In this document: one piece after another, positions 5,914-59,473 of the stretch | Layout of the letters: each line of letters begins with the position of its first letter | How positions within the stretch are numbered: the first letter of the stretch is position 1 | IMG/VR virus record: IMGVR_UViG_3300031993_000017 | Direction: 5' to 3' (one strand) | DNA length: 64,000 nt | DNA from: a virus | Lineage: Duplodnaviria; Caudoviricetes | Translations under genes and position numbers: made by a program | The notes under the pieces: model-generated | What the model saw: the letters and a program-made list of their open reading frames with translations, nothing else | What the model was told of the DNA's origin: nothing | The model's database searches: none

Positions 5914-6588
5914 TCAATATGAAAAACTGAGTAACCATTTGACAGCTCTATCAATCTCTTTTGATATAAGGGATGGATTCTTGTAAAACTTAGCATCATT
6001 GAATGTAACTGCTTTCTCAAAATCTGACATAATATTCTCTTGACCTTGAGTCTTATCTGCTACATATATAACACCAGTAACTTCTCCAGAATGCACATTG
6101 TAATTTGTTTGATAACTAAAAGCAAGTTTCACCCTAGAATTTCTATATTTGATTACTAACCCTCTGCATAAGTTCCTAACATCTTCCTCGAATCTATCTA
6201 CCTTTGCAATAATCTTCTTCTCTTCTTCAAATTCCTTATAAGCTTGTCCTAGATTGAAGGTTATGACCATATCTAAATCTTCGGTGATATCTTCAATTGT
6301 GTTGAACCTTGTAGAAAATGTAGTGCTGTAAGTATTTGGAAGTGTCGTAGTATATGCTAGTTCATAACCTTTGTACTTTATAGTACCAAACTTAGATACA
6401 GGAAGTCCAAACAGCTTTGTGTAACGGAATGTATACTTAACTAAATTGTCAACTAATGATATTATCTCTACTTCACCAGAGCAGTTGTAACTACTTGCGG
6501 TGTGATCTAAAATCTTTTGCATTTCTTCTGTAATCTCAGAAACTGTTACAGACGTAGGATTGTGGCTAGCTAAAATGCGAATTCTCAT
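5914..6588 (-). CDS. hypothetical protein with degenerate basic N-terminal tag (MRIRILAS)
   Basis: ORF, GGAGG SD, ACCTTTTAT motif upstream. Confidence 0.65.
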   Translation of the reverse strand: MRIRILASHNPTSVTVSEITEEMQKILDHTASSYNCSGEVEIISLVDNLVKYTFRYTKLFGLPVSKFGTIKYKGYELAYTTTLPNTYSTTFSTRFNTIEDITEDLDMVITFNLGQAYKEFEEEKKIIAKVDRFEEDVRNLCRGLVIKYRNSRVKLAFSYQTNYNVHSGEVTGVIYVADKTQGQENIMSDFEKAVTFNDAKFYKNPSLISKEIDRAVKWLLSFSY

Positions 6589-6627
6589 AGGAACCTTCCT
6601 CCTTTGATGCTATAAAAGGTAAAAAGA

Positions 6628-6665
6628 AACGCATGTAGATACCAAATGAGATACCTACATGCGTT
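6628..6665. terminator. intrinsic terminator hairpin
   Basis: AACGCATGTAG...CTACATGCGTT inverted repeat with a U-rich tail on the minus strand. Confidence 0.65.
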
Positions 6666-6686
6666 GTGTTAATTGAGAATTTAGTA

Positions 6687-7418
6687 TCAGATCTTGTCAG
6701 TCAGATGTGCGTTGATGTATTCTCTTCCTACATCTTCTTTATCCCATCTCTTGACAATATGTAATCCTAAAGGACTGAATACAACTTCTACGAGTAATTC
6801 AATGAATCCTCCGACTACTGCTGTGCCGAGTGCGGTCCAAACTGGATAACTGAATCCCCAGAAGATCGGAGCAAAGATGCAATACAATCCTCCAAAGAAA
6901 AGGAAGTTATCTACAAACTGACCTACAAAAGTGGACACATAACTTCTAATGAAGAAAGCAACACCGCTGTCAGGATTCTTGACGAATATCTTACCTACAA
7001 TTGAATTCAAGATACTATTAACTACACCTGACACTACAAATGCTACAGTACTACAAAGAACAATGAACCATACAGACGCGAATACGGAATTGAATGCGGA
7101 ATAGTCCTGGCTGTTGTTAGGAATGGCTGCAACAATCCACAAGAATATTACAGAAAATAGATTACCAAGTGCAGAAAGAACATTGAGCATGATTGATGCT
7201 CTAGCACCAAAACGCTTTGTTACGGTATCCATGCATAAGAATGGACACCAGCTTAAGATAAATCCTCCTGTGAATGCTACATTGCTTATCTGGAAAATAA
7301 TTTTTCCTGCGGCTAGATTCATGAGTACTGTACTAAGTACAAATGCTACAGTTACTAGTGCAGGAATGTTCTTCAATAGCAGTTTATAGTCCGCTATAAG
7401 ACTCTTGTTTGAATTCAT
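6687..7418 (-). CDS. queuosine precursor (preQ0/preQ1) transporter, QPTR/VUT (YhhQ-like) family
   Basis: multi-TM protein; N..A.K, D...K.FG, S.VAF.VS, RS..ST.VGQ.VDN.LF motifs. Confidence 0.8.
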   Translation of the reverse strand: MNSNKSLIADYKLLLKNIPALVTVAFVLSTVLMNLAAGKIIFQISNVAFTGGFILSWCPFLCMDTVTKRFGARASIMLNVLSALGNLFSVIFLWIVAAIPNNSQDYSAFNSVFASVWFIVLCSTVAFVVSGVVNSILNSIVGKIFVKNPDSGVAFFIRSYVSTFVGQFVDNFLFFGGLYCIFAPIFWGFSYPVWTALGTAVVGGFIELLVEVVFSPLGLHIVKRWDKEDVGREYINAHLTDKI

Positions 7419-7471
7419 GATGAATTCCTCCTTTTTATGGTTTTGATTTATATAGACCGCAGGAATTCAGT

Positions 7472-7735
7472 TTAGGTCTGAGAACTGCGGTTGATATCAG
7501 ATTCTTCATCCTCTTTAGGTTTCTTATCATCTTTTTTCAGAAGATAGTAACCATTGATGAAAATCATGATTGCATTTGCAACCCAGGTGTATGTAGCTCC
7601 TATGTACAGCCCATATATAACAAACAAAACACTACCTGTAAGATTTAAAATTCTTATCAGTTTGACTGATTTAAAGCAAAATCCTATCACTATACAGGTA
7701 GTAGCTAGAAATCCAATTATTTCAAAAATATTCAT
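7472..7735 (-). CDS. small inner-membrane protein (YgjV-like)
   Basis: IG..A.....F......IR..N..GS..F.IYG pattern, three TM segments. Confidence 0.65.
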   Translation of the reverse strand: MNIFEIIGFLATTCIVIGFCFKSVKLIRILNLTGSVLFVIYGLYIGATYTWVANAIMIFINGYYLLKKDDKKPKEDEESDINRSSQT

Positions 7736-7895
7736 ATAATAATCCTCCGCAGATATCTCTAGTACAATAACGATTCGGTAACTGCAGATATCCGCGGAGT
7801 ATGAAAATTATTTTATGTTGTATTTCTTACACCAGGCTTTATACAATTTTTGACGTACCCATCGGCTAAAGCCAATAGGATTCGCAAGAAGTTTG

Positions 7896-9160
7896 CTACG
7901 AGAGCCTTATTCTTGCAGGACTCGCCAAAAGTCCCAGACACAGTTTGTCGAAATCGACATTCTGCTTACATTTTCTCATTATGTTTGCCGCACCATTTAC
8001 ATCTGCATTAACGATTGTACCATTCGCAGAACAATACAGACCTCGATGTAGTCTCTTACCACTAAACTTACCTGTATATGGTTGTTCAGGCTTGTATTCA
8101 GGCAATACATCTTTGTCAAGGAAACTGCTTTTAGATGTATATGCTTCTTCTTGTTCGATGTAGTCAATACCATACTTCCAACAAAGAAAACTCAACTGAT
8201 TTCTCAAATCTCCGAGAGGTATCTGAACAAAATTCTGATTGTTTACTTTGCCGATGTTAGAATTTCTTTTGAAGTCAGCATTATATCCAACGACAAGTGA
8301 ACCTATATCATTTTCTATACAATAGTCAATGATATATCGTGCAGTCTTTTTGATACAGTCATTTACCTGATTATTGCGTTTAGTAGTAATTCTCTGAATA
8401 CGATTAGTAGTTTTCAAATTCTGTTTCATAGCAATTGAGCGAAGCCTTGACATCTCTTTATTCCACTGGTGATTGATTGATTTAATTTTACGACCATCCA
8501 TTATGAATGATGTCCCAATTGTGGAAACGCAAGTTGCTAAATTATCTATTCCGAGGTCAATTGAAATTACATTGTCTTTATTCAGATTTATCGGTTCTTC
8601 GGTTACTTCATACACATACTGAATTTTGAATACTCTACCATTACCGCAAGGCAAGATACGAACTTCTTTAATAGTTTTATCTGAAAGCCTTTTAGGAAAT
8701 GGTATTGCAATCTCTTTAACTTCAGGATGTAATGCCCTAAACTCTCTACTCATAGGGAGCATCAGATAATCACCACGAATAATAATCGCATTAGTAGAAA
8801 GCACTAAATTGAATAATCCCCCGATTTTCTATAATGTGGTATCTTTACATCGTGGTAGCGGTAATCACCGACTTTACACTTTTTCAGCAAATTGAAGAAT
8901 GATTTGAAACTGCGGTCAACAACTTTCATAGTTTGTTGAGCCACACCTGCTTGCAGTAACTTGTAATTTTCATTAGTCTTACATTCGTGATAATTACTCT
9001 CGTAGGTCAAAAACATCTTGGTATCAAAATAATGTTGTCTTATATTGTAAAGAGCAACATTATACAGATTATTAGAATATCGACACATTTCTTTAAGTAG
9101 ATTATATTGCTTTTTGGATAATCCTCGAATGACATTACTTTGTACTGCGTAAGTTGACAT
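7896..9160 (-). pseudogene. tnpB: TnpB (frameshifted, two ORFs 8804..9160 and 7896..8804)
   Basis: collinear with intact 43809..45074; break at a G5 run near 8818-8822. Confidence 0.85.
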
Positions 9161-9263
9161 CTTATTCTCCTTTCTATAGATTTAACATCACATACATATA
9201 AGGTTATTTAATATATTCTAATTATATATTAAATCTAAACTAATCACAACCTTATATGAAAAT

Positions 9264-9677
9264 ATGAGTAACGAATATATTTCTAAAAATAGATGCAAAT
9301 TCCTATTAAGATACCACTTAATCTTTGTATGTAAGTATAGAAGAAACCTACTTGCAAGTAACAACATATCATCAGATATTAAGAAGTTATCGGAAGAAAT
9401 TGCTAATAATCATAATGTTACCATTAAGTATATGAAAACTGACAAAGACCATATTCATTATATGATTGAAACAAATCCAAATATCAATTTATCAGATTTT
9501 GTCAGAGTATTGAAACAATATACTACATATCATATTTGGAAGAAGTATGAACCATATTTATCCAAATGTTTCTGGCACGAACGTACCGTTTGGTCAGATG
9601 GATACTTTATAGCATCTATAGGAGAAGTGAGTTCACAAACTCTACAATACTACATTGAAAATCAAGGTAAGAAATAA
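9264..9677 (+). CDS. tnpA: IS200-type Y1 transposase
   Basis: YHLIFVCKYRR, DHIH (HUH), WSDGYF, YIENQG. Confidence 0.95.
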   Translation: MSNEYISKNRCKFLLRYHLIFVCKYRRNLLASNNISSDIKKLSEEIANNHNVTIKYMKTDKDHIHYMIETNPNINLSDFVRVLKQYTTYHIWKKYEPYLSKCFWHERTVWSDGYFIASIGEVSSQTLQYYIENQGKK

Positions 9678-9937: not shown

Positions 9938-10855
9938 TCATAAATGAGACATGTAATTTCTAGTGTCTTTCATGTAACTTTTTACTTTGTCAACATAATC
10001 TAAGAACACTGCTAATTGATAGTCATCATATTCGCCGTACTTCTCTGCGTCTTTGGCCGGCTTGAACTCATTATCATTGTTGAAACATTCTCTTAACATT
10101 GTTCTATAATTGCCGATAGCTCTAGAAAGTGAATCTATTGCCCTTTCATAGTTATCACTATAATTTTTTCTATCAACGCTCCGAATGTCAAACGATAAAA
10201 CCTCATCACGAAGATCTTGAAGTTCTGTATACAGCTTATCTACTTTAGCCATTGCAGCCTGTGGGAACTTCCTTACTGCACGGCCTAACATCTCAGAAGG
10301 ACTAGGAACGGAATATCCGGACTTGTCTCGATTCCTGTCGTTTCTCCAATATGCTCCCGATTCTGACCAGCGTCCTTCGCGGTCTTTGTGCTGACCTGCA
10401 TATTGTCCTTCATTAGACTGCCAATCATAATGATAACGAGGATCTCTGTATCGTTCTTCAGGAATATCAATCAAATTAGACGGATCATCTAAATCTACAT
10501 AAACTACGTCTTTCGTAACAGACCAAAGCGTGTCGTTTCCGAGCTTCTTTGGATCTCTCTCACGACCATTTATTCGTATTGTAAAGTTTTCCATCAGTCC
10601 TGGAGCGTAAACTTGATCGTACAAACCGTTTTTCAATAAGTAGAATGCTTGATAGTGCCCGGATTCCGGAGGTGTCTTCACGAATTTAGCACGATCCCAA
10701 GCGATAGAAGATTGTCGACCTAATTTAGCTATATTATATTTATCAAATTTAGGCGGATTCCAACCCCTTTTCGGCATACTTTTCTTCAGCCATTCTGGAA
10801 TAGACGGTGAAAATGAAGCCTTTACATAAGTAGCACTTTTAACGTATCTTTTCAT
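9938..10855 (-). CDS. KRY-tag protein; paralog of the C-terminal part of 57002..58234
   Basis: MKRYVKSA-TYVKAS; shares Y.DPR, YAGQ, RDKSGY.[VI]P.P with 57002..58234. Confidence 0.8.
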   Translation of the reverse strand: MKRYVKSATYVKASFSPSIPEWLKKSMPKRGWNPPKFDKYNIAKLGRQSSIAWDRAKFVKTPPESGHYQAFYLLKNGLYDQVYAPGLMENFTIRINGRERDPKKLGNDTLWSVTKDVVYVDLDDPSNLIDIPEERYRDPRYHYDWQSNEGQYAGQHKDREGRWSESGAYWRNDRNRDKSGYSVPSPSEMLGRAVRKFPQAAMAKVDKLYTELQDLRDEVLSFDIRSVDRKNYSDNYERAIDSLSRAIGNYRTMLRECFNNDNEFKPAKDAEKYGEYDDYQLAVFLDYVDKVKSYMKDTRNYMSHL

Positions 10856-12266: not shown

Positions 12267-12632
12267 TCAATACTGTTCAAAGCCAATTGCTTTAAGATGA
12301 CGTTTCAGATCGTAAAATGTGTCAAACTTATCTGAAATCAGCTTACAAACACGATGTAATTCAAGAAGTGCTTGAGCAGGAGTTCTATGACAGTCACCGC
12401 TAACACAGTCACCAAAAGAGTAATCCATATCATATTCATCAATTACATCTATTTCAATTCCGTTAACAGTTGACAAAATATCAAGAACTGTCCCGTCATC
12501 AAGAACAAGTTCTGCGATATACGGATCACTACCGTCATCAAATTCTTCGGCACCTCCCCATGCATACCAATCGTTCTTAGTGAATCTACGAGCGTTGTAA
12601 TTGTAACTACTAGCAAAAACACATTTTCTCAT
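12267..12632 (-). CDS. hypothetical protein with degenerate basic tag (MRKCVFASS)
   Basis: ORF directly after the endolysin. Confidence 0.65.
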   Translation of the reverse strand: MRKCVFASSYNYNARRFTKNDWYAWGGAEEFDDGSDPYIAELVLDDGTVLDILSTVNGIEIDVIDEYDMDYSFGDCVSGDCHRTPAQALLELHRVCKLISDKFDTFYDLKRHLKAIGFEQY

Positions 12633-30951: not shown

Positions 30952-31251
30952 TTAGTATTCATTCTCATTTAAGATACTCTCCGGCGGAGTTTCTTCATAG
31001 ATATCATATCGCTTCAGTGCATCAGTTGTAAGCACCTGGTCGGCTAAGAACCAGCACCTCCCATAACCATCATCTACAACATCGTAGATATTTAAACCCT
31101 GTGGAACACTTCCGGGTTGAACTCCGTGATTAGTGCGATACCAATACAATCCTTCACGACCATAGGAAGAATATTCATCGGAAGGAGTTACAGGACGCTT
31201 CTCGAAACTTCGATTTCCGTATGAATAATTTGATTTGATATATCGTTTCAT
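30952..31251 (-). CDS. KRY-tag protein with DarA C-terminal-like domain
   Basis: MKRYIKSN; YWY...HGVQPGSVP...G......LT..AL..YDI. Confidence 0.6.
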   Translation of the reverse strand: MKRYIKSNYSYGNRSFEKRPVTPSDEYSSYGREGLYWYRTNHGVQPGSVPQGLNIYDVVDDGYGRCWFLADQVLTTDALKRYDIYEETPPESILNENEY

Positions 31252-31665: not shown

Positions 31666-32442
31666 CTACCTACCAATAAGTGTATAGACATAAATGTTAC
31701 AGTTTGGATTTAATTCATTTATCTGTCTTATAATTTCATACAAAGTAGAACCAGATGTGTTTATATCATCTACAACAAGAATGTTTGTTCCATGTTGTAA
31801 TTTTTGTATTTTAGCTAGATCAGAATCCTTGAATTGAATAAAATTTCGAATATATGGTCTGTACTTAGGTTTCACATTTTTTGCAAGTGAGAAATAATCA
31901 AGATTATGAATCTTTGGCATCAGAACCTTGTTTATATACTTCTTTGTTTCTCTATAAACATTTATATCCGAACCATAATCTGATTCAAACAAATCCCAGT
32001 CAAAATAAATATCAGTTGGAATAGACTTCACAAGTTGAAAACTGCATCTAGTCATATCTCGGCTTGTCATTCTATTTATAACTTGAATCATCTTTTCAAC
32101 AAGTTTACTTCTCCCTGACAGTGGATATGCAAATGCATCAATATGATATGTGTTTATTGATTCATTTAACAATGACAAAGGTATTGATAAAAATCTTTCA
32201 AACTCAGATTCAGATAACCTTGCATCAGACAATCCCTTTATTGTATTGATAAAATTTGTCTTATCCTTAGAACTCACGTTAGAATTAAATTCATACCCAA
32301 ACCAGTAAACATTGTTTGCAATATCTGATTGATATATCTGCGGTGTAACAAACTGAATTAAATCCTCAGGCAAATTGTTCGAATAATCCATGTAATAGGA
32401 GTTGTCATTCGGTCTAACACCACAATGAATATATCGTTTCAT
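31666..32442 (-). CDS. KRY-tag type I phosphoribosyltransferase-fold protein
   Basis: MKRYIHCG start at 32442; PRPP-binding loop ILVVDDINTSGSTL. Confidence 0.75.
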   Translation of the reverse strand: MKRYIHCGVRPNDNSYYMDYSNNLPEDLIQFVTPQIYQSDIANNVYWFGYEFNSNVSSKDKTNFINTIKGLSDARLSESEFERFLSIPLSLLNESINTYHIDAFAYPLSGRSKLVEKMIQVINRMTSRDMTRCSFQLVKSIPTDIYFDWDLFESDYGSDINVYRETKKYINKVLMPKIHNLDYFSLAKNVKPKYRPYIRNFIQFKDSDLAKIQKLQHGTNILVVDDINTSGSTLYEIIRQINELNPNCNIYVYTLIGR

Positions 32443-32533: not shown

Positions 32534-33970
32534 CGTTCAAATTCTACTGAAATTATAGTAAAATTCTAATAAATTTTATTTATAAGAAGTTTGCTTTCAT
32601 TGCGAAAGCCTTATTCTTAAAGGCGTAATGACTTCGCCTCTACACTGTTCCAAATGTTGTATTTGGTTCAGCTTACTTTTTCTCATTATATTGAGAGCTC
32701 CGTTGACATCTGCGTTTAGTACTTGACCATTCGATCTTTGATAGAGACCGCGATAAATTCTTTTTCCTGTGAAGCTACCTTGATGCGGGTTTTGTGGATT
32801 CCAAATTGGTATCTTGTCACTGTCGAAAAAGCTTGCCTTTGAAGTGTAACTTTCTTCTTGTTCAATGTAGTTAATACCGAATCGATTACACAAGAATTTC
32901 AATCGATTTTTGAATTTGCCGTAAGGAATCATGACGAAGTTTTGATTATTGACTTTACCTAGATTAGGATTTTCTTGAAATCCATCATTGAACCCTACTA
33001 CAATGTTTCCTATCTTATGTGTTAGGCAATAGTCAACAATGTACTTTGCAGAACAATAGACAAAATCTTGGATGCGACGATTTCGCTTTTCAGTAGTTGC
33101 AGACATTCGAGATGTATCACATTTAATCCCTTGCTTGGCTTTCACGCTTGATAGTCTGGCACGCTGTTTGTTGTACCATTGGTTTTGTGATTTTAATTTT
33201 CTACCGTCAATTATGAATGCTTCTCCAGTTGAGGTTGCACAAGTTGCAAAATTATTGATACCAAGATCGATACTCAAAGCTTTATTCAGATCAAGATCTT
33301 GAATCTCGTCATACTCTACGTCGAACAAATATCTTGCTTCAAACCACTTGCCACCTTGCCTAGGAACAATGTGAATTTGATGAACTTTCTTATCTCTAAG
33401 TTGAGGTGGAAAATGCAACTTGATTCTTGTGTCAGTTTGTTTCTTCATTAAAGGCGACATCGGAATAATCATTGTACCATCTTCCTTCATAAATGATTCC
33501 GGAAGGTGTATAGGATACAATCCATCTTTCGGCAAGTAATAGGGCATATTGACTGCATCTTTTGAATACTGCTTCTTTTGAACTAGTTTAAGCAATGCGA
33601 AAAATGAACGAAAAGCTGCATCAACGCATTTCATAGTTTGTTGAGCGATGTTAGCTCCGAGCAACTTATAATTCTCACTCGTTTTTTCAATCGGGTAGGT
33701 GGCTTCATATCGTAAGAAAGACCCTTCACTGAAGTAGTGCTGACGAATGTTGTACAGAGATTCGTTATACACATTTTTGCTTAGACGACACATTTCTTTC
33801 AACAGCATATACTCATCTTTGGATAAGTGTTTTAAGTTTTGTTTCCAAGTTACTAGCATGTTTTCACCTCCTTTCTTTTGCTGTTCATATTAAAGGTTAG
33901 GAATTACAATCAAATCGGCTGAATTGATTGTAAAATTAAATTTTAATAGAATTTCAATATAGTTTACACG
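32534..33970 (-). mobile_element. non-autonomous tnpB-only element with IS607-like ends
   Basis: imperfect AT-rich inverted termini, each bounded by a CG dinucleotide (32534-32535, 33969-33970); no transposase. Confidence 0.6.
32597..33859 (-). CDS. tnpB: TnpB RNA-guided nuclease
   Basis: SIDLGINN, EESYTSKAS, NADVNGALNI. Confidence 0.9.
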   Translation of the reverse strand: MLVTWKQNLKHLSKDEYMLLKEMCRLSKNVYNESLYNIRQHYFSEGSFLRYEATYPIEKTSENYKLLGANIAQQTMKCVDAAFRSFFALLKLVQKKQYSKDAVNMPYYLPKDGLYPIHLPESFMKEDGTMIIPMSPLMKKQTDTRIKLHFPPQLRDKKVHQIHIVPRQGGKWFEARYLFDVEYDEIQDLDLNKALSIDLGINNFATCATSTGEAFIIDGRKLKSQNQWYNKQRARLSSVKAKQGIKCDTSRMSATTEKRNRRIQDFVYCSAKYIVDYCLTHKIGNIVVGFNDGFQENPNLGKVNNQNFVMIPYGKFKNRLKFLCNRFGINYIEQEESYTSKASFFDSDKIPIWNPQNPHQGSFTGKRIYRGLYQRSNGQVLNADVNGALNIMRKSKLNQIQHLEQCRGEVITPLRIRLSQ

Positions 33971-34185
33971 ATGCTGCTGTAGTTTAGTATAGCATGTTCT
34001 ACAGCATCAATGTTGTAGTAATCTGTATTCTTTAAATCCTTCATGTAATCTCGAAGCTCAGACCAACTTCCTGTGAATTCTTCGGATACTGTATGTCTTC
34101 CAAAGTCATCATCGTAGTCCATGTAGATGGTCCAAGTTGTCGAGGCTTTAACTGGTTGTATAGAACACTTAACAAGTCTTTTCAT
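33964..34185 (-). CDS. KRY-like-tag protein (MKRLVKCS-IQPVKAS), C-terminus cut by the element
   Basis: ATG 34185 after AAAGGA; stop lies inside the element end. Confidence 0.6.
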   Translation of the reverse strand: MKRLVKCSIQPVKASTTWTIYMDYDDDFGRHTVSEEFTGSWSELRDYMKDLKNTDYYNIDAVEHAILNYSSIV

Positions 34186-36572: not shown

Positions 36573-36601
36573 ATTATATGATAATTGTAGAAAAAAGTCA
36601 A
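36573..36601 (-). promoter_or_regulatory. sigmaA-type (early) promoter
   Basis: TTGACT-17bp-TATAAT. Confidence 0.8.
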
Positions 36602-37279: not shown

Positions 37280-37308
37280 ATTATATGATGAAACTACAAA
37301 AAAGTCAA
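37280..37308 (-). promoter_or_regulatory. sigmaA-type (early) promoter
   Basis: TTGACT-17bp-TATAAT. Confidence 0.8.
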
Positions 37309-38057: not shown

Positions 38058-38411
38058 TCATTTCAACTTGCGTAACTGTGTTAATGCTTCCTTATCACTT
38101 ATTTCACCATTCCATTGACGTAGCAGTACATCCTTATTTAACTTGATCCACTTTATTATTTCATTTTCATGTTTCACTTTTGCACGAACTAATAACCTAG
38201 GTTCGTCTTCTACAGAAAATGGAACTTTATTTCCATCCACATCTGCTTTAACTCTTGGAAGATTATGTGCAACCTTCCTAGTATTTGCCGCACGATCAAT
38301 CCATACATCATAGGGAATGTTAAATTCACTTTTAGTAGCAACTGCCATACAATAGATTCTAACTGAATGTTTACTGTTAATATCTTTTGAGCTATGTATG
38401 TATCTTTTCAC
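38058..38411 (-). CDS. KRY-tag protein, DUF4160-like
   Basis: GTG start (KRYIHSS) after GGAGGTG; H..PRVK...I..WI..N...L...WN. Confidence 0.6.
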   Translation of the reverse strand: MKRYIHSSKDINSKHSVRIYCMAVATKSEFNIPYDVWIDRAANTRKVAHNLPRVKADVDGNKVPFSVEDEPRLLVRAKVKHENEIIKWIKLNKDVLLRQWNGEISDKEALTQLRKLK

Positions 38412-45074: not shown

Positions 45075-45203
45075 TTCTATCTCACCTCCTTCTGATTGTA
45101 TTTGTTATTAGTTACTATATCTTTATTATATAGCAAATCGTTATGATAGTCAACCATTTTTAATTCATTGACCTTATATGAAGATTAAAGGAGGTCTGAA
45201 TAT

Positions 45204-45620
45204 ATGATACATAACGATTACAAGCATGGAAATAGAAATAAGTCCTTACTAAGATATCATCTTATATTTGTATGTAAATATAGAAAACATTTGCTTACGC
45301 ACAACAATATCATTGGCGATGTCAAACGCTTATCAACAGAAATATCGGAAAAGCATGATGTTAAAATTAAATACATGGAAGTTGACAAGGATCATATTCA
45401 TTACATGATAGAAACAGCCCCAAATATTAACTTATCAGACTTCGTGAGAGTCTTAAAACAGTATACTTCGTATCATCTTTGGCAAAAATATACTGCATAT
45501 TTGTCAAAAGTATTCTGGCATGAAAGAACATTCTGGTCTGACGGATATTTTATTGCAACTATCGGAGAGGTTAGCGCCGAAACACTAAAACACTATATTG
45601 AGAATCAAGGTAAGAAATAG
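45204..45620 (+). CDS. tnpA: IS200-type Y1 transposase
   Basis: YHLIFVCKYRK, DHIH, FWSDGYF, YIENQG. Confidence 0.95.
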   Translation: MIHNDYKHGNRNKSLLRYHLIFVCKYRKHLLTHNNIIGDVKRLSTEISEKHDVKIKYMEVDKDHIHYMIETAPNINLSDFVRVLKQYTSYHLWQKYTAYLSKVFWHERTFWSDGYFIATIGEVSAETLKHYIENQGKK

Positions 45621-45663: not shown

Positions 45664-46349
45664 CTAAAGCTTCTTGATTTTCTGCAAAAGATTGTAATAG
45701 GCGTCACGCTCTTCTTCATCTTTAAACTTCAAGAAATCATAAAATCCGGATCGTAATTCTCTCGGAAGAAACTTTTTCATTTGAAATAACTGATTTGATT
45801 TTTTCAATTCTTCAAATTGTTCCAATGCCTTATCAATTTCATTTTTCGCAACAGTCCGTGAATAACCGGCACTAATCATTGCATTGAATGCAGTGTTATA
45901 ATCGAACTTCACATCACGATAGAGTTTTTAATCAACTCAAAGTAAATCAGATTGTGCGAGATGTTTTCCAACAGGTATGTATGGACTCTACTTACCAACG
46001 AGTGCGGTTTACTCTGAGTGCATACAATTGCAGAAAACTTGTTAATGTCTGTATATGTACCTATATTCAGAACACCAAGTTCAACAAAATCATCCCACAG
46101 TTTTGATTCCGCCATAGTCGGATTTTTCAGATGATCTCGAAATCGTTGTTTTTGAGTTTTATCAGTGCAATCATCATTGTAACTATATGAGTAAATATAC
46201 TGAACTCCATTGTCTACGAATGATCCGTCAGACTGCCTATTCAGAAGGATAATATCACGATGAGTATTATCCTTCTTTGTGTTTATTCTCAAATCATTGT
46301 GTTCATCAATAAACACACCTGCATGAATATAGGACTTTTTGATCTTCAT
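45664..46349 (-). pseudogene. frameshifted, IS-truncated paralog of the PRTase-fold gene 31666..32442
   Basis: MKIKKSYIHAG; FELIK..(fs)..VKFDY, FQMKK..P...R..F.DFLKFKD match the paralog; PRPP loop missing. Confidence 0.65.
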
Positions 46350-49705: not shown

Positions 49706-50215
49706 TTAAACCTTAACAGGAGCATCAAATGATTTACTAATAGTTAACTCAGAAAAGTCAATAGTTTCATATAATTCTCTAAGCTTCTCATGCGAACTTG
49801 CAGGGGATATGATTCCTACAGTAGATAACTGCCCAGATAACCATTCAAAATATCCGGTAAATATAGGTTCAAATTGTCTAATTACAGCATCTGTATCATA
49901 AATATTGCTATAAGACTCAACTTCACAACAAGTTTCTATTAAAACTTTCATATAATCTTTATCTGTGATAACATCTCTGCGCTTATCAGAAGTCCACAAA
50001 ATAATCTGTCGCTTTGTTGGAAACTTATTAGTACCCTTCAACTTTGGTGATCTTGAAAAGAACGAGTATACTTCCTGCTCCCAATGTGAAACATATGGAC
50101 TTGTAGGAAACAGTAACACGTAAAGCATATGTTCAACGCATAGATCAATGCATGAAGACAGCTGCATCTCTAAATCTTTTTTATTTTCTGCAAAACATCT
50201 TATGTATCTCTTCAT
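49706..50215 (-). CDS. KRY-tag protein, DUF29-like helical domain
   Basis: MKRYIRCF; EH.L......HW..EV..F. Confidence 0.55.
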   Translation of the reverse strand: MKRYIRCFAENKKDLEMQLSSCIDLCVEHMLYVLLFPTSPYVSHWEQEVYSFFSRSPKLKGTNKFPTKRQIILWTSDKRRDVITDKDYMKVLIETCCEVESYSNIYDTDAVIRQFEPIFTGYFEWLSGQLSTVGIISPASSHEKLRELYETIDFSELTISKSFDAPVKV

Positions 50216-51418: not shown

Positions 51419-51450
51419 AGTGGTACCTCACTTTTACATAAAATAGAAAG

Positions 51451-51525
51451 TCGGAATGACAGGATTCGAACCTGCGACCTCTTGATCCCAAATCAAGCAT
51501 TCTAGCCAAACTGAACTACATCCCG
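51451..51525 (-). tRNA. tRNA-Pro(TGG)
   Basis: cloverleaf; anticodon arm CTTGA-TTTGGGA-TCAAG; GGTTCGAATCC. Confidence 0.92.
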
Positions 51526-51667
51526 ATGATTCGTTTCGAGTTTTTTACTAGGTCAAAACGCATCCACAGAACCATACAGATTTTGTGCTTACCTTTAAGC
51601 ACCTAAAACCAGTAATCGCATTACGAAAACTAGAGACCTTCTCTAAACATGTTAGATGGGTGTTGAA

Positions 51668-51867
51668 TATCTCAGGTGAGGATTTGCACCTCACATGATT
51701 GGAGTTTTGGGATATTATTGCTCTCGATTACCTCCCTGTGTTACACCCGAAGGCTCAAGACTGGTCTTGCACTGACTCGATGATTATTTTACACGGCACA
51801 ACATCAATCCGTAACCAACCTATAAGAAGCCACACTTTAGCGTCTACCTATTCTCGCCACTGAGATA
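51668..51867 (-). ncRNA. tRNA-like RNA A (no anticodon arm, ~140-nt insert)
   Basis: TATCTCAG/CTGAGATA stem, Leu-like D-arm, T-arm GTGAGG-TGCAAAT-CCTCAC. Confidence 0.65.
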
Positions 51868-51928
51868 CAATGATCAAGACCGTTCAATTAAAGCACCTGC
51901 AAGCAGACACCACTGAAAAGCCTTGCAA

Positions 51929-52016
51929 TTGAGAGAATGGGATTCGAACCCATGCACGAGTTATCTCGTCTAGCAGATTTCAAGTCTGCACTCTTAAACC
52001 GCTTGAGTATCTCCCC
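51929..52016 (-). tRNA. tRNA-Ser(TGA)
   Basis: GCAGA-CTTGAAA-TCTGC, long variable arm; 1:72 mismatch. Confidence 0.85.
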
Positions 52017-52023
52017 ATGTCCT

Positions 52024-52776
52024 TCAATCGTTACAATTTTCATACAATTCTTCTAATCGATTATAAGAATAAGATGACCTAACATACTCAAATATTTCCT
52101 TTAAATCTGATTCTGTTAGATTCACTATCTTTCTATCTTTAACAGACTTTAACTTAGCATATTTACGTCCTGTCATGTATCCAGATATTTCTACAATTGT
52201 TCCATCTTCTAGTTCAAAATCTGGATAATATTTACATATTTCCCCATTGTATTCATATTCATAGTAACGTATACACCTCTTAAATGATACACCATGATCT
52301 ATGTTGTATATTACATATGCAAGTTCATATGTAGAATCACAGAAGTAACCTTTGTACCAACCTTTTTTGCCTCTACCTGACCTGGTTCTTAATCCTCCAC
52401 AATTAGTAGATAAACGCATACTTTTTGAAATCTTACATTTTCTGTTAGCTTCAATTTCATAAGTTGAACCTCGTCCAGTTGACCAACTATGACCATTCAA
52501 TTTAATATAATCATGAGAAGATTTGCGCATACTTTCGGACATTCGCATTACTCTATCATCTGTTTCCTTTGTAAGACCTTTATTCCACGGACTTCTGCCA
52601 CTGTTTTGATGTCTCGAAAATTCAGGATTTGAAAACGGGCTCTTTATAGGAATTCTATTAGGATTCACTCTACATCTGATTTCATGTTGTTTTAAAGAGT
52701 TTATGTTTTTACATTTTTTCTTGCAATACGAACAGTACAAATCATCTCTATCTTCTAAATAATGATTGTTAGACAT
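52024..52776 (-). CDS. free-standing homing-endonuclease-like protein (Zn finger, NUMOD-like, PD-(D/E)XK-like)
   Basis: C..C.K......L.QH..RC, PWNKGLTKETD, DS.YE...Y.PDF...VEI(S)GY. Confidence 0.7.
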   Translation of the reverse strand: MSNNHYLEDRDDLYCSYCKKKCKNINSLKQHEIRCRVNPNRIPIKSPFSNPEFSRHQNSGRSPWNKGLTKETDDRVMRMSESMRKSSHDYIKLNGHSWSTGRGSTYEIEANRKCKISKSMRLSTNCGGLRTRSGRGKKGWYKGYFCDSTYELAYVIYNIDHGVSFKRCIRYYEYEYNGEICKYYPDFELEDGTIVEISGYMTGRKYAKLKSVKDRKIVNLTESDLKEIFEYVRSSYSYNRLEELYENCND

Positions 52777-52871
52777 CTTAACTATCTCCTTAACGATAAA
52801 TGATGAAATGAGCTTGAAGTTAATGCTTCATTATTTCGAAGGTTAGCTATTCTATCTCTACCCCATTTCAA

Positions 52872-52948
52872 CAGACCAGAGGTTGGATTCGAACTGACGA
52901 TGAAACGCTGTCAGCTATGGCTCGTTATGACCACTTCGATATCTCTCC
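52872..52948 (-). pseudogene. degenerate tRNA (Ser-like 5' end)
   Basis: GGAGAGATATCGAAGTGG...GTTCGAATC but broken anticodon, T and acceptor stems. Confidence 0.55.
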
Positions 52949-52952
52949 ATAA

Positions 52953-53053
52953 TCCAAGCATAGAATAGAGTTTATAGTTGTTTTGTTGCTGAGGGAAACA
53001 ACAGGTTTGAGAGTGTTGCAGGATAAACTTTAGAGGGCTATCCTATGCTTGGA
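52953..53053 (-). ncRNA. unknown structured RNA F
   Basis: 16-bp terminal stem with a G-U pair on the minus strand only; inner stems; wedged between tRNA genes. Confidence 0.5.
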
Positions 53054-53056
53054 AAA

Positions 53057-53134
53057 CTGGACTGGTTGGATTCGAACCAACGAAAAAATGCAGGCGTCAA
53101 AGACCCGTGACTTAAACCACTTGTCGACAGTCCA
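53057..53134 (-). tRNA. tRNA-Gln(TTG)
   Basis: CGGGT-CTTTGAC-GCCTG; T1-A72. Confidence 0.85.
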
Positions 53135-53161
53135 ATGTATTGACTACTAGATCATAGAAGG

Positions 53162-53335
53162 TTATTCAGATTCTTCGTCCTTTTCGCCGACAGATACACG
53201 ATACTCAATCTGTGCTCCGCAGTTTGCACAATGGCATACATGAACGATTCCGTCTCCTTCATACCCAAAATCACTGAAACTGAAATCAGCGTCCCAAACT
53301 ACTCCTTTGGTACAACAGTGAAAACATTCAAACAT
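53162..53335 (-). CDS. small Zn-ribbon protein (MFECFHC...CANCGA)
   Basis: 57 aa, two CxxC motifs, SD AAGGG. Confidence 0.6.
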   Translation of the reverse strand: MFECFHCCTKGVVWDADFSFSDFGYEGDGIVHVCHCANCGAQIEYRVSVGEKDEESE

Positions 53336-53572
53336 AATCGTAACACCCTTTCAATGAAACTGAAAACTTTTAAAACAAATGCATCATTCAGAAGTTAGGT
53401 CTATAAAAATTAGGTATTATATGGTAGTTCCTAGTTTCAACTACCAAGCCACCAATTCTTGTTAGGAGCAAAGAATCTGAGTTTCGGTACGAGTCCTACC
53501 GGACTTTGTATGAGGTTGCTACTCAATCATGCGAGCTGTTGAAATCTTAATTTTCAATATCCAATTCATCTA

Positions 53573-53740
53573 CTAAAGAAAATCCCCCCAACAACTGCAT
53601 CCGTATTTGATAGCGTTTTTGATAATATCAGAATCTGGCATCTCATCCACCGCTTTATATAACGACGGAACTGCGACTTTTATAGCCATTTTTGCAGCAT
53701 CAAGATCAATTTTCACAGTTAAGATTTTTTCATTTGCCAT
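53573..53740 (-). CDS. small hypothetical protein (MANEKILTVK...)
   Basis: AAGGTG SD; possible frameshift at a G6 run near the end. Confidence 0.45.
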   Translation of the reverse strand: MANEKILTVKIDLDAAKMAIKVAVPSLYKAVDEMPDSDIIKNAIKYGCSCWGDFL

Positions 53741-53903
53741 AACTATTCACCTTATTCACAAGTATCCAAAACAACCACCTGACCGGATTGCGTATGAATT
53801 GTTCGGATTCTTCGGCATGTAAGTCAGATGGTTGATAGATAGGATCAACCTGCACACTGGTTGTTCTTCATAGAATCAACACGCGTCATGGATTGATCAC
53901 AAG

Positions 53904-53977
53904 TGGAACATGTAGGATTCGAACCTACAACCGCTCGGTTATGAGCCGAGAACTCTAACCAGTTGAGTTAATGTTCC
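53904..53977 (-). tRNA. tRNA-Ile2 (CAT; lysidine type) rather than Met
   Basis: CTCGG-CTCATAA-CCGAG; body resembles Firmicute tRNA-Ile(CAU). Confidence 0.8.
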
Positions 53978-53985
53978 TTGAAAGA

Positions 53986-54094
53986 ATGGGTGTCCGAATC
54001 TTTGCAGGTGTCTCCCGTAGGAGCATAGGACTATCCTGTTCACGCATCCCTAAGTTTTCGGAAACGGGTATCACTTACGTTTTAGCCCACCCAT
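53986..54094 (-). ncRNA. unknown structured RNA D
   Basis: ATGGGTG/CACCCAT closing stem, GC-rich internal hairpins. Confidence 0.4.
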
Positions 54095-54102
54095 CCAGTA
54101 AA

Positions 54103-54241
54103 AGATGATTGCAGAATCGAACTGCCTTCGCTCCACGCTTCAATACAAAAGGTTACGAATCTCTTGTATTTCTATGGTCTCGAACCACTTTCAACCCTTC
54201 ACCCGTCGGTACGTCAGGTCCCTCCCACTAAGAAATCATCT
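54103..54241 (-). ncRNA. RNA C with tRNA-like acceptor/T-arm
   Basis: AGATGATT/AATCATCT stem stacked on GCAG-TTCGATT-CTGC. Confidence 0.55.
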
Positions 54242-54250
54242 AAGTCAATT

Positions 54251-54344
54251 TTGTGCAATGGCAGTTTCTACAGCCCCACGCTAACTGGACTACTCATTCA
54301 CGGCTGAGTAATCTATGCCGACCCGATTTGCCCTCGGAGCACAA
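54251..54344 (-). ncRNA. unknown structured RNA E
   Basis: TTGTGC/GCACAA closing stem with internal hairpins. Confidence 0.4.
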
Positions 54345-54347
54345 GCA

Positions 54348-54476
54348 TGATTCAATGGTAAGGATTTGCACCCTACAGAATGAGTCCTATTTAGGCATCA
54401 GTTTCAGCCACGGCTATCTCCATACTCATTCGTCTCGCCACCCGCCTATGTTTACCTTTTCCACCACATTGAATCA
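54348..54476 (-). ncRNA. tRNA-like RNA B (no anticodon arm)
   Basis: 10-bp TGATTCAATG/CATTGAATCA stem, Leu-like D-arm, T-arm GTAGGG-TGCAAAT-CCTTAC. Confidence 0.65.
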
Positions 54477-54478
54477 CA

Positions 54479-54562
54479 TGCACCTAAACGGATTCGAACC
54501 GTCACGAGAATATTCTCAATGGATTTTAAGTCCATCGTGTATTCCAATTCCACCATAGGTGC
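54479..54562 (-). tRNA. tRNA-Leu(TAA)
   Basis: ATGGA-CTTAAAA-TCCAT, variable arm. Confidence 0.92.
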
Positions 54563-54669
54563 TTTTGTGTGAGACTCACCCAACCCATATCTCACCTGGA
54601 GTTGCTCCCCATGGGTCTCCACCAATGCGCAACTCTATCCACCAAACATCTAGGAGGTATCTAAATGTA

Positions 54670-54740
54670 CTGGACTAGCTGGATTCGAACCAGCGTTGAC
54701 GGAATCAAAATCCGTTGACTAACCTCTTGTCGATAGTCCA
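54670..54740 (-). tRNA. tRNA-Gln(TTG)
   Basis: ACGGA-TTTTGAT-TCCGT. Confidence 0.9.
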
Positions 54741-54847
54741 ATGATTCTGTTTCAGCTATCTGCCCTACCTAGTTCAACAGAGATGCCTAGAATTCTCTAA
54801 ACACCTCTGCCGAACTCTAAAGAGGTATCTTATAGGCAGGAGTAATC

Positions 54848-56181: not shown

Positions 56182-56245
56182 AATTTGTACCTCCTGTACT
56201 GTTGATAAGATATTTATTTCAGCCGGTCTATTGACGACTGTTTTT

Positions 56246-56274
56246 ATTATAAGAAAAAACTTACAAAAAGTCAA
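56246..56274 (-). promoter_or_regulatory. sigmaA-type (early) promoter
   Basis: TTGACT-17bp-TATAAT. Confidence 0.8.
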
Positions 56275-56310
56275 TAGGTTTTTTAAAATTTTTTTGAATT
56301 GTTGCGATAA

Positions 56311-56736: not shown

Positions 56737-57001
56737 AGTTATCCTCCAAGCATTCTTCTATATGAATAGACAAAAGTATTCTAAGTAGAAGTTCCACTAC
56801 ATCTGAATCTTCTGAGGTTGTTATTTGATATTCAATTTCTTGAATCAAGTCCTTACTAATCATTTCAGATGTTCTCCACTAGGTGTTATATGTATTTAAA
56901 CGATTCACGAGTAAAACAAATAGATGTCAGCTAGAAAAGATTTTGTCTTCTAACTGGCATCTATTTGACTTAAGGAGCTATGATTGAAGTGTTCGCTGAG
57001 T

Positions 57002-58234
57002 TTACCGACCTATCTTTCCTAAACATTCATCTATATAATCAATATCATTTCTAACGTCGTTGATGTATTTAAACAGGGTGGAGACCTTGTACTCTCTGTA
57101 TCTTCCGCCTGTTACCGTACTAGGTATGTTCTGTAACACTCGGTTGTAATCTCTAACAGCCTCTCCAAGATATCTTAATGCTTGTGAATAGTTTTCAGCG
57201 TCCTGAGATTCAATGTATCCGTAATCGTCATCAAGTTGAGGTCTAGTATTAGGCACATCTATAGATAAAACACGATCTCTTGTATCTACTAACCTTCTGT
57301 AAATATCTTCTACTTTATCTGCAAGTTTACCAAGATTAGACGGATCCCTGTAGAATTCTACTAACTTCTCTTTCGGATTTGGAATGCGGTATCCTGATTT
57401 ATCGCGCCCTCTATTAGTGATCCAAGAATAATTGTCTGATCCAATACGCTTTTGACCGGCATATCCCCTTTCGTAATCACGACTGTCGAAGAATCTAGGA
57501 TCCTGATATTTTTCTCTAGCTACGGGCGGTGCCTGCTCTAAATCTACATAAGTAATATCGTCTGCATTATCAAGTAACGCTGACCTTGACATTTTTCCGA
57601 GTGTACGAGAACGTCCATTTACAACTATTTGATCCTCGTCATTTACACCAGGAAAATAAATAGTGCGACCAAACTTGTAAATAGGATAGTAGTTGCCAGA
57701 AGGCGCGTCTAAGAATTTTGCAGTGCTTAGATCAAACTCCTTTGCCAACCTATCTTTAGTAAATTGCCTTATTCTCCACCTATTATTGAACCCTTCTCTC
57801 AACCAATCAGGTGCACTAGGATCAATGGAAGCAGTTATCCGACGACTCCTTCTTAATCTTGTTGAGGTGTTTACAATATCAAAAATCTCTTCATAAGATT
57901 CAACTGTCAGATCATTGCAGGCCTCTTGAAATGCTTCGTCTATTGCATCTTCCTCGCTATCTGCATATACACTATAAGTTTCATCCAGTCCGATGTAAGT
58001 TGCAAAGTTATAAGTTACTTCGTACTCTCCATCGGCTGTTTCTTCAACATCTACATCAGAAAGAAGATCACTGGCTATATCGTTATCAGGATCCTGAATA
58101 AAGATGCACAAACTTTCTTCAAGATCGTCCTCGTTCCAGTAAGATTCGTTATCAGGATCTACATAAACATCTACGGTTTCATATCCATTGATATATCCTG
58201 CGAATCCTACTTCTACACTAAAGTGTCTCTGCAT
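57002..58234 (-). CDS. fusion protein: acidic N-terminal repeats + internal basic tag + paralog of 9938..10855
   Basis: two F.[GT]YI..E...VY repeats; RLRRSRRITAS linker; YQDPR, YAGQ, RDKSGY. Confidence 0.75.
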   Translation of the reverse strand: MQRHFSVEVGFAGYINGYETVDVYVDPDNESYWNEDDLEESLCIFIQDPDNDIASDLLSDVDVEETADGEYEVTYNFATYIGLDETYSVYADSEEDAIDEAFQEACNDLTVESYEEIFDIVNTSTRLRRSRRITASIDPSAPDWLREGFNNRWRIRQFTKDRLAKEFDLSTAKFLDAPSGNYYPIYKFGRTIYFPGVNDEDQIVVNGRSRTLGKMSRSALLDNADDITYVDLEQAPPVAREKYQDPRFFDSRDYERGYAGQKRIGSDNYSWITNRGRDKSGYRIPNPKEKLVEFYRDPSNLGKLADKVEDIYRRLVDTRDRVLSIDVPNTRPQLDDDYGYIESQDAENYSQALRYLGEAVRDYNRVLQNIPSTVTGGRYREYKVSTLFKYINDVRNDIDYIDECLGKIGR

Positions 58235-58255
58235 TATAATATCCTCCCATAGTTG

Positions 58256-58564
58256 TTATTTGCATAATATGTAATAAGTATGAGTTGCTGGGTAAGAATC
58301 TTCTCCAGTATCCTCTAATTCTTTTTCATCTATTCTAGGCATACAGTCGAAATTTTCACGAATAAGCTCATCAGCGTAAAGATGATCATGTTTCCAATCA
58401 CCATCAATCTTGAATGTAATCTTAGCTACGGGTAGATCTTCGAAGTAATCTAAGTCCCATAGCTCTGCCCAGATATGAGCGTCTGAAAGAACTTTATCCA
58501 TTCTTGCTGCAAGATCATTCAGCTTATCTCGATCTTGTGTGCTAGCTTTGATGTATCGTTTCAT
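58256..58564 (-). CDS. KRY-tag protein
   Basis: MKRYIKAS; I.GDWKH.H motif. Confidence 0.75.
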   Translation of the reverse strand: MKRYIKASTQDRDKLNDLAARMDKVLSDAHIWAELWDLDYFEDLPVAKITFKIDGDWKHDHLYADELIRENFDCMPRIDEKELEDTGEDSYPATHTYYILCK

Positions 58565-58573
58565 GTTTCCACC

Positions 58574-58777
58574 TCACAACTCCCACTGATAAGGATCACG
58601 ATTATACTCATATGAATCGGAAAGTTCTCGCTTGTATATCTCAATCAAATCAAATATCTCGTCACGTTCGATCCAAGATAAATTAGGATCGTCTAACTTC
58701 TCCTTTAACTCAGATATTTTGTTTTCCAGTTCTTCAGGGTCAACTGACCTGTATGATGATTTAATGTATCTTTTCAT
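58574..58777 (-). CDS. KRY-tag protein
   Basis: MKRYIKSS. Confidence 0.7.
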   Translation of the reverse strand: MKRYIKSSYRSVDPEELENKISELKEKLDDPNLSWIERDEIFDLIEIYKRELSDSYEYNRDPYQWEL

Positions 58778-58791
58778 AAGTTATTGTCTCC

Positions 58792-59250
58792 TTATATAAT
58801 TCCGTACTCTACAAGCAGACCGTAAGATACTTTGGGAATAGCTCCAATTCTAGCTACTCGATCCATAATAAAATAAAATGAACTTGATGAAAGATAACTA
58901 ACTAGTGACTCCTCGCTCCACATATCTTCTGTGTCATCACCAGGTGCTGGATTAGACAGAGCGTCAACAGCAGCATAAGGATCTTCAGCAAGTGCTTCCA
59001 TTGCTTCCTGCTCACTAGAACAGTCTGTATCTTCAATAAAATTGCTGTCAGCAATCAAGTAGTTAGTAATCATATCAGCTACCGCTTGACCATCTGTTTC
59101 ATAGGGAACTGAAAAATCTACGTATTCTCTCCAACCAGAATTGCAATAATCTAAGAAATTTTCGATGTTTCCTCCGAATTTTCTGTCAATTATCTGCTTT
59201 ACCTGAGAATACACAGTGTCAAAATAATTACCTTTCACTAAATATGACAT
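58792..59250 (-). CDS. acidic hypothetical protein
   Basis: ORF with GAGG SD. Confidence 0.6.
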   Translation of the reverse strand: MSYLVKGNYFDTVYSQVKQIIDRKFGGNIENFLDYCNSGWREYVDFSVPYETDGQAVADMITNYLIADSNFIEDTDCSSEQEAMEALAEDPYAAVDALSNPAPGDDTEDMWSEESLVSYLSSSSFYFIMDRVARIGAIPKVSYGLLVEYGII

Positions 59251-59266
59251 ATCCTCTTATCCTCCA

Positions 59267-59473
59267 TTAAATTGTCAAGCACTTTTCAACAATTTCAATC
59301 GTGTCGATGTCAGGTGCAGATGCATACATATCACGATTCTTCCACAGTGAATATGACTTACCATCGTACCGAATAGCATACTTACCTTGATACCGAACAA
59401 GATCAGGCAATTTACTGTTGCCTTCAAAATGTGTATAAGCCGTTACTTTAGCCTTCCGTCTTAAAATCTTCAT
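59267..59473 (-). CDS. hypothetical protein with basic N-terminus (MKILRRKAKVTAY)
   Basis: GGAGG SD; ACCTTTAAT motif upstream. Confidence 0.55.
   Translation of the reverse strand: MKILRRKAKVTAYTHFEGNSKLPDLVRYQGKYAIRYDGKSYSLWKNRDMYASAPDIDTIEIVEKCLTI

Follow-up and report, generated by a model that had tools for sequence, protein, structure and literature searches.

Eight genes in one stretch of a large phage genome (IMG/VR record IMGVR_UViG_3300031993_000017, Caudoviricetes) encode proteins that begin with the same short basic peptide, MKR[YL][IV]x[ASC]. We refer to this peptide as the tag, and to the whole 64,000-nucleotide stretch that was analysed as the window. The second half of the tag matches a motif that is concentrated in two head proteins of the phage clade to which the window belongs: the capsid protein, within its propeptide, and the protease-scaffold. 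We consider it somewhat probable that the tag is a T4-like capsid-targeting propeptide, cut by a prohead protease whose specificity has switched to one resembling that of herpesvirus assemblin.

By analogy with T4, the basic MK(R) start with Tyr or Val at residue 4 would bring a protein into the core of the assembling prohead. Residues 4 to 8, [YV]4-[IV]5-x6-[SAC]7/[SAN]8, would form positions P4 to P1' of a site for the phage's own gp21-family (Peptidase_S77) protease, which would clip the tag off inside the head (slashes mark a cut or, in these phages, its predicted place). The clade protease would cut after a small residue with Ile or Val at P3, as herpesvirus assemblin does, in contrast to the cleavage after Glu in T4 and phiKZ. 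Small proteins that evolve fast and are mostly acidic, along with a few enzymes, would thereby travel in the head and be delivered together with the DNA. We infer each of these steps: targeting, cleavage, packaging and delivery.

A peptide tag on unrelated proteins of the window

The window holds about 85 genes; the pattern count below covers 91 called proteins (19,018 amino acids, aa). The strict tags belong to genes starting at positions 10855, 31251, 32442, 34185, 38411, 50215, 58564 and 58777. Each is preceded by a Shine-Dalgarno site, and the gene at 38411 starts with GTG, 6 nt downstream of GGAGGTG. The pattern MKR[YLIV][IV]x[ASC] occurs eight times at an N-terminus and not once internally in these proteins.

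A first-pass annotation made from the DNA letters had proposed about a dozen tagged genes. All twelve N-termini that it quoted are present as written, and ten of them hold as members: besides the eight strict tags, two looser ones, MRIRILAS (6588) and MRKCVFAS (12632), are in exact register, with Ile or Val at residue 5 and small residues at 7 and 8. The other two (46349 and 59473) are off register. The doubled sites that had been described exist (YVKSA-TYVKAS and LVKCS-IQPVKAS). The bodies had been called mostly unrelated, and all pairwise BLASTP comparisons of the eight strict bodies gave E > 0.1. DNA upstream of the eight genes is also unrelated between genes, and the codons for Arg, Tyr, Ile and Ser vary among the window tags. 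Since bodies and upstream DNA differ and synonymous codons vary, selection acts on the peptide, as the annotation had argued. Its domain labels fared unevenly. The phosphoribosyltransferase (PRTase) fold is supported and the DUF4160-like match exists below threshold, while we found no support for the DarA_C-like or DUF29-like labels, the latter protein matching an unnamed PHROG at E 0.001 only.

The tag is a trait of the clade

Megablast of the window found no match among cultured phages, and the nearest isolates share only about 25% identity in the capsid protein. At least 70 related IMG/VR contigs have capsid proteins that are 50-60% identical, and one more contig (G002) encodes a baseplate protein about 92% identical to that of the window. 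Across at least 50 related IMG/VR contigs (120-250 kb, with T4-type head genes), exact tags number from 0 to 27 per genome. A degenerate DNA pattern for MK[RK]Y[IV][KR] occurred on the coding strand only, at 0-27 per genome versus 0-2 for a reversed-pattern control. In the four zero-copy genomes that were read (G043, G045, G040 and G030), about 3-9 genes apiece start with a variant, MKRVI[RK]S[SA].

The consensus of 92 tags is M1 K2 R/K3 Y/V4 I/V5 K/R6 S/A/C7 S/A/N8, with no conservation beyond residue 8. Its register is fixed: the site motif with Ile or Val at residue 5 is found in 78 of 1614 proteins, compared with about 0.6% at other positions. Additional sites within the 32 residues after the tag were present in 7 of 102 tagged proteins and in 40 of 1512 others (p = 0.025). 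A Sec or lipoprotein signal peptide does not fit, as neither a hydrophobic run nor conservation follows residue 8.

Tagged proteins are short (median 116 aa) and hydrophilic (median grand average of hydropathy -0.63), and 74 of 111 from 11 genomes are singletons by BLASTP. Pfam and PHROGs searches with 91 tagged proteins assigned almost no family, so the notion that they are anti-host effectors stays a guess. Those with recognizable content are the PRTase/ComF-like protein of the window and one BspA-type leucine-rich repeat protein; large methyltransferase-domain proteins of relatives have N-termini that are merely tag-like. Our literature search found no paper containing the string MKRYIK.

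The site motif recurs in the capsid propeptide and the protease-scaffold

Head-gene sequences were read from relatives, and the head genes of the window genome itself are known from its gene table. A few kb beyond the window start, this table places a protease-scaffold gene (497 aa, weak S77 match) and a Gp23 capsid gene (489 aa). In G002, the Pfam score is 32.1 bits for Peptidase_S77 (cut-off 27) and 76 bits for Gp23, which is also above its cut-off. PDB sequence searches returned nothing for the capsid protein and only coiled-coil matches for the protease-scaffold. A T4-type head, together with a peptide-level signal on unrelated proteins, agrees with the capsid-signal part of the first-pass proposal.

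That proposal had also called for a search for internal [IV]x[ASC][SA]-type sites in head proteins. We found both the capsid propeptide and the scaffold to be enriched in [IV]x[AS][AGST]. The capsid propeptides are 57-112 aa long and each holds 2-5 copies (mostly 3-5) at conserved places, the final copy directly preceding the conserved TNT.NI that opens the gp23-like domain. In seven genomes, 538 aa of propeptide contain 26 copies, whereas 2885 aa of mature protein contain 34 (Fisher p = 2.6e-7); the same propeptides contain no [LIV]xE, the T4-like alternative. Across 69 clade propeptides (4924 aa) there are 241 copies of [IV]x[AS][AGST] versus 3 of [LIV]xE; the proteome background of the former is 0.5-0.7 per 100 aa. 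In the alignment, the conserved capsid sites read P[IV]TAG, SIT[AS]G and, just before TNT, [IV]-x-[AG]-A.

The protease-scaffold shows the same signature. An invariant [IVL]AAS[ST] stands immediately after the protease domain in 8/8 genomes, and the scaffold part, which is coiled-coil, is enriched in the motif (74 in 2560 aa versus 12 in 1273 aa). SVTAS/T lies 39-47 residues from the C-terminus in 5/8 genomes. The second half of the tag, Y-[IV]-[KR]-[SA]/[SA], corresponds to P4 to P1' of a site of the herpesvirus R- or M-type. Streptococcus phage GXN1, an outgroup whose genes are arranged in the same way, has LVE, LIE, LLE and LLE in its propeptide and lacks the tag. We found no literature report of an S77 protease with non-Glu specificity.

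A small gene (65-73 aa) with a tagged or tag-like start lies inside the head module of G001, G043 and G045. The counterpart position in the T4 head module is occupied by small core proteins.

Leaders of variable length and co-variation with the head genes

In an orthologous family of 68-89 aa proteins from seven genomes, the basic leader is 6 to 23 residues long. Six of the leaders end in [IV]-x-[AS]-A or [IV]-x-x-A-A, directly in front of an acidic body that is conserved, and the remaining one (G040) reads I-V-G-A.

For the PRTase encoded at window 31666-32442 there are at least 234 homologues, of which we read 120. Of these, 75 start with the canonical 8-mer and an invariant Gly, and many others have longer basic leaders that still end in [IV]-x-[SAG]/G-[VI]-R. 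In the window protein, AlphaFold2 places residues 1-6 outside the fold (predicted local distance difference test score < 50), and they are predicted to be disordered. The residue before the invariant Gly8 is Ser, Gly, Ala, Thr or Cys in most of the 120 and Glu in about 12, with junctions such as LLE/G, KLIE/G, FIE/G, MVE/G, YNE/G and ELNE/G.

In the four genomes with both genes readable, the junction type goes with the head-gene type. G054 combines the PRTase leader ...ELNE/GIR with a capsid protein containing MNLLE...HLTE and a protease with ...SLISE/G. G055 combines ...YNE/GIR with ...GLVE...RMVE/ATN in the capsid and ...AVVE/S in the protease, and its RMVE/ATN aligns within one residue of the clade's ITA/ATN. 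Two genomes with small-type PRTase members, G048 and G031, have small-type capsid propeptides. Several clade genomes lack the PRTase gene, which makes it an accessory gene, with a leader of the type used by the lineage in which it resides. The co-variation, seen in four genomes, is the strongest evidence that the junction may be a prohead-protease site. Together with the match between [IV]-x-small-small and the motif of the capsid propeptide and protease-scaffold, it favours the earlier suggestion of cleavage after the small residue. No homologue of the 68-89 aa family was found in G054, G055 or GXN1, so it provides no second co-varying family there.

Several further observations concern the Glu-type contigs. 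In G054 (the L278 record, 202 kb), MK[LIM]xE starts number 15 on the coding strand versus 6 in the control, and MKL[STGN]E recurs. This excess is a weak hint of what may be a short Glu-type leader of that lineage. KLIE was not enriched in L286. We considered the methyltransferase adjacent to the G054 PRTase gene as a second co-varying case and rejected it, as it is unrelated to the tagged methyltransferase of the clade. No head genes were found within 10 kb of the other Glu-type PRTase genes. In three Logan/ENA records (L282, L286 and L288), the Glu-type PRTase gene lies among RNA-repair-type genes, which encode a CCA-adding enzyme, RlaP, a T4 Rnl1-type RNA ligase, Thg1, a Zeta/AAA_33-type kinase, NADAR and dUTPase. 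These neighbours hint at a role for the PRTase/ComF-like protein in RNA or nucleotide repair.

Comparison with known head maturation systems

The T4 capsid-targeting sequence (CTS) and the L/I-x-E rule have been reviewed (PMC9026906), and the sequence MKTYQEFIAE is printed in PMC8442874. The clade tag resembles the CTS of IPII and IPIII, and the related gp21-removed propeptides of IPI and Alt, in being a short peptide of fixed register at the N-terminus of unrelated proteins. Both begin M-K-x-Y, and both end in a motif that recurs in the capsid propeptide and scaffold. Both genomes encode a gp21-family (S77) protease and a gp23-family capsid protein, and the cargo loci are fast-evolving in both. 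In T4, CTS residues 4 and 7 are needed for targeting. The differences are also clear. The clade tag has 7-8 residues and is basic, whereas the T4 sequence has 10 and is acidic; the predicted cut is after Ser, Ala or Cys and not after Glu; there are tens of tagged genes per genome versus about 4-6 in T4, with cargo that is mostly very acidic; and the clade system is predicted from sequence. Since the tags end in S/A/C-S/A/N, and [LIV]xE is nearly absent from the propeptides (3 in 4924 aa), this is not a plain member of the T4 type.

Herpesvirus pUL26 is laid out as protease, R-site (YLQA/T), scaffold and M-site (VQA/S) (PMC4498786). The tag's Y-[IV]-[KR]-[AS]/S, and in particular the second site of gene 10855, YVKA/S, resemble the assemblin R-site Y-[LV]-x-A/[ST] and M-site V-x-A/S. 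The clade protease is likewise fused to a coiled-coil scaffold, with a candidate Ala-Ser site directly after the protease and, in 5/8 clade genomes, a second candidate site about 40 residues from the C-terminus. Herpesvirus and phage protease folds are held to be related by Cheng et al. (2004), as cited in PMC9026906. However, the phage enzyme belongs by sequence to Peptidase_S77, the T4 gp21 family, and is no herpesvirus protease; we therefore do not claim membership of the assemblin type. Herpesviruses also have no known use of the site as an N-terminal cargo tag.

The giant phages phiKZ, 201phi2-1 and SPN3US, with processed head and ejection proteins cut at S/A/G-x-E, offer a parallel to the proposed system: many of their head-internal proteins bear propeptides at the N-terminus, which have redundant cut sites and are taken off by a diverged gp21 homologue. 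Their propeptides differ in being long, unshared between proteins and cut after Glu.

What appears to be new is a small-P1, assemblin-like site type, its apparent co-evolution with the propeptide and scaffold, and candidate natural pairs of Glu- and small-type versions. A more sweeping account is possible, and we put it forward tentatively, with more doubt than belief: that the P1 preference of a gp21-family protease changed from Glu to a small residue; that propeptide, scaffold and 8-residue tag co-evolved with it; that the tag sends as many as about 30 different small acidic proteins (10-17% of the gene set) into the head in a large clade of gut and rumen phages; and that mobile accessory genes take on the local tag. 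If true, this would provide a natural T4-type head protease with assemblin-like specificity, and would link phage and herpesvirus maturation by substrate recognition, beyond the fold. It would also supply a minimal 8-residue packaging tag for a large uncultured phage group, probably of gut and rumen Clostridia, which would show from sequence which orphan proteins are carried by the virion and are the earliest to act on infection. The existence of one family in Glu-type and small-type versions would offer a route into protease-substrate co-evolution.

Promoter-like motifs and timing

Three classes of promoter-like motif occur in the window: TTGAC[AT]-17-TATAAT, AACCTT..TAT and GAATCGTT. Sigma-70-type motifs of the first class lie at 61622-61650, 37280-37308 and 36573-36601. 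AACCTT..TAT motifs lie at about 30900, 26706, 20422 and 11335, 40-65 nt before tail, lysis and other genes. GAATCGTT motifs lie at about 38450, 38769, 51165 and 12093, and [GC]AATCGTT stands 33-48 nt before this third gene set.

The first-pass annotation had placed most tagged genes downstream of the ACCTT motif that also precedes virion genes, and none directly downstream of a sigma-70-type promoter. It is correct that no tagged gene lies directly behind such a promoter, but 58777, 58564 and probably 34185 are in operons headed by one. The consensus heading tagged operons is TTGACA/T-17-TATAAT, and it is a perfect TTGACA-17-TATAAT for 58777 and 58564. The ACCTT assignment fails for 38411 and 50215, which follow GAATCGTT instead. 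In the relative G004, five tagged genes and a gene with an off-register MMKKYIKSA start have the late-type motif at -44 to -63, like virion genes; here the motif reads AATCTT.

Weighing the capsid-targeting propeptide against alternatives

Several findings count against the tag being a propeptide cut by the prohead protease. P2 is Lys or Arg in the tags and mostly Thr in the capsid sites, and the cut motif of the protease is itself deduced from the head-protein sequences. Timing is mixed: in the window only 10855 is clearly behind a late-type motif, and several tagged genes are probably transcribed from early-type promoters. The co-variation consists of 2 + 2 genomes in which both genes are readable, and a single lineage may account for both Glu-type genomes; in the Glu-type contigs, a repeated leader of Glu-type is not evident. 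The tagged proteins are strongly acidic (median isoelectric point 4.55, 84% below 5.5), which is unexpected of proteins packed against DNA. They are also numerous, with up to about 30-35 tagged genes per genome (G004 and G006) and a share of up to about 17% of genes in a relative; in the window, 8 of about 85 genes, about a tenth, are tagged.

Some of these properties would suit a cytoplasmic signal unrelated to the capsid, such as a degron at the N-terminus or a peptide bound by an adaptor, by which a host AAA+ protease or a phage factor would time the turnover of small early proteins. Small, acidic, hydrophilic proteins are typical of early host takeover, several tagged genes are in sigma-70-type operons, and a fixed register from Met1 suits recognition of a free N-terminus. 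N-terminal motifs recognized by E. coli ClpX are also of the Met-basic-hydrophobic kind. However, the likeness to the head sites would then be coincidental. The abundance of [IV]-x-small-small in the capsid propeptide and scaffold would be left unexplained, as would the switch of the PRTase junction to Glu in lineages with Glu-type heads and the position of the site next to the body whatever the length of the leader. We regard such a signal as unlikely, although it is the alternative that we take most seriously.

The tag might instead dock its proteins to some other shared partner, such as an enzyme of the kind that modifies ribosomally synthesized peptides, a chaperone, or the tail or ejection apparatus, and not to the prohead core and protease. 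N-terminal docking peptides of other kinds do exist in the clade, as seen from a second leader family, MSIYVKTSxGA, on 16 genes beside tail-fibre genes in G001. A search for modifying enzymes that track the tag, which covered CxxxCxxC enzymes only, found that the tag-bearing genomes share no radical-SAM/SPASM or other candidate enzyme except a QueE-type radical-SAM protein; one extra radical-SAM protein is unique to G001. Both the motif shared with head proteins and the co-variation indicate the head protease as the partner, and we judge docking elsewhere to be a shade less likely than a degron-like signal.

A cause at the level of translation would be an optimum copied among new genes by recombination, whether an A/U-rich start, a nascent peptide that is favourable or the operator of a RegA-like translational repressor. 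It would account for the A/T-rich codons of the tag and for Lys2, which is common in bacteria. In 111 tags from 11 genomes, the Lys, Arg and Ser codons are indeed mildly A-rich, but codons 2-8 of untagged genes are shifted equally. Usage otherwise follows that of the gene bodies (Tyr p = 0.85, Ile 0.23, Val 0.94, Ala 0.76; Cys likewise). Codon choice as in gene bodies, with an A-shift shared by untagged genes, indicates that selection is on the peptide. Arg is encoded by AGA and CGN and Ser by TCN and AGY, position 7 is a size class (S/A/C) and not a codon class, and the upstream DNA is unrelated. This explanation is improbable. Common ancestry as one paralogous family, or chance, is the least credible of all: some paralogues exist, for example seven tagged copies in G004, but the preponderance of singletons, the 8 N-terminal versus 0 internal occurrences in the window and the reversed controls leave both with very little room.

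Tagged genes of the window

The tagged genes and the candidates below are all on the minus strand. The largest strict member (9938..10855, 305 aa) begins MKRYVKSA, followed by the second site TYVKAS, and one gene separates it from an AACCTT-type promoter-like motif. Its body shows a weak relationship to window 57002-58234, and an Atlas search with the protein returned nothing usable on function. The gene at 30952..31251 (99 aa, MKRYIKSN) belongs to a BLASTP single-linkage family that includes larger proteins of relatives (591 and 1171 aa) with a tag-like start and a methyltransferase domain. The PRTase/ComF-like protein used for the co-variation analysis is encoded at 31666..32442 (258 aa, MKRYIHCG-VR). 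A 73 aa protein (33964..34185) begins MKRLVKCS and has a second site, PVKAS. The GTG-started gene at 38058..38411 (117 aa, (M)KRYIHSS) is behind an GAATCGTT motif. Homologues in G001 and G045 of the 169 aa protein at 49706..50215 (MKRYIRCF) have the N-termini MKRVIYCF, MKILCF and MRIIIGH. The two remaining strict members are at 58256..58564 (102 aa, MKRYIKAS) and 58574..58777 (67 aa, MKRYIKSS), the operon of the latter being headed by TTGACA-17-TATAAT at about 61650-61622.

Both looser tags are in the same register: MRIRILAS (5914..6588, 224 aa), with a late-type motif upstream, and MRKCVFAS (12267..12632, 121 aa). Of the off-register candidates, MKIKKSYIHAG (45909..46349) has the site shifted by 3 residues and is weak, and MKILRRKAKVTAY (59267..59473) is also weak and probably no member.

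Other features of the window and its relatives

The large phage genome to which the window belongs has a G+C content of 36-37%, and the minus strand carries almost all genes. Tail and baseplate genes form a block at about 14-31 kb, and lysis genes, a tRNA cluster, IS200/IS605-type genes and numerous small orphan genes are also present. The six tRNA genes (Pro, Ser, Gln, Met, Leu and Gln) are clustered at 51450-54741 on the minus strand. IS200/IS605-like pairs are found at 43809-45620 and 8804-9677, each with a Y1-transposase-like gene on the plus strand (45204-45620 and 9264-9677) divergent from a TnpB-like gene; the copy at 43809-45074 (421 aa) is full length and that at 8804-9160 (118 aa) is truncated. 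There is a third TnpB-like gene at 32597-33859. In the gene table of the genome, 6687-7418 is a Vut_1 gene of the queuosine-precursor transporter family and 1490-2026 encodes an Enc34-type single-stranded DNA-binding protein. Two adjacent pentapeptide/DUF5758 genes occupy 2057-3977. The database names of two PRTase homologues (a Lachnospiraceae metagenome-assembled genome and Anaeromassilibacillus) suggest gut Clostridia as the host group.

The second leader family of G001, in full MSIYVKTSxGA..L, is carried by proteins of 101-151 aa (L009-L011, G001 75123-109714). Their bodies are mostly unrelated (2/120 pairs similar), and the genes are clustered. This leader has Y4-[IV]5-K6 in common with the tag, and its residue 7 is not small. 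In G002, L016:8838-11108 encodes an SNF2-type helicase that carries an intein splicing domain (Pfam, 39 bits), and genes with tagged or tag-like starts lie directly downstream of the SNF2 helicase gene in G001, G004 and G002.

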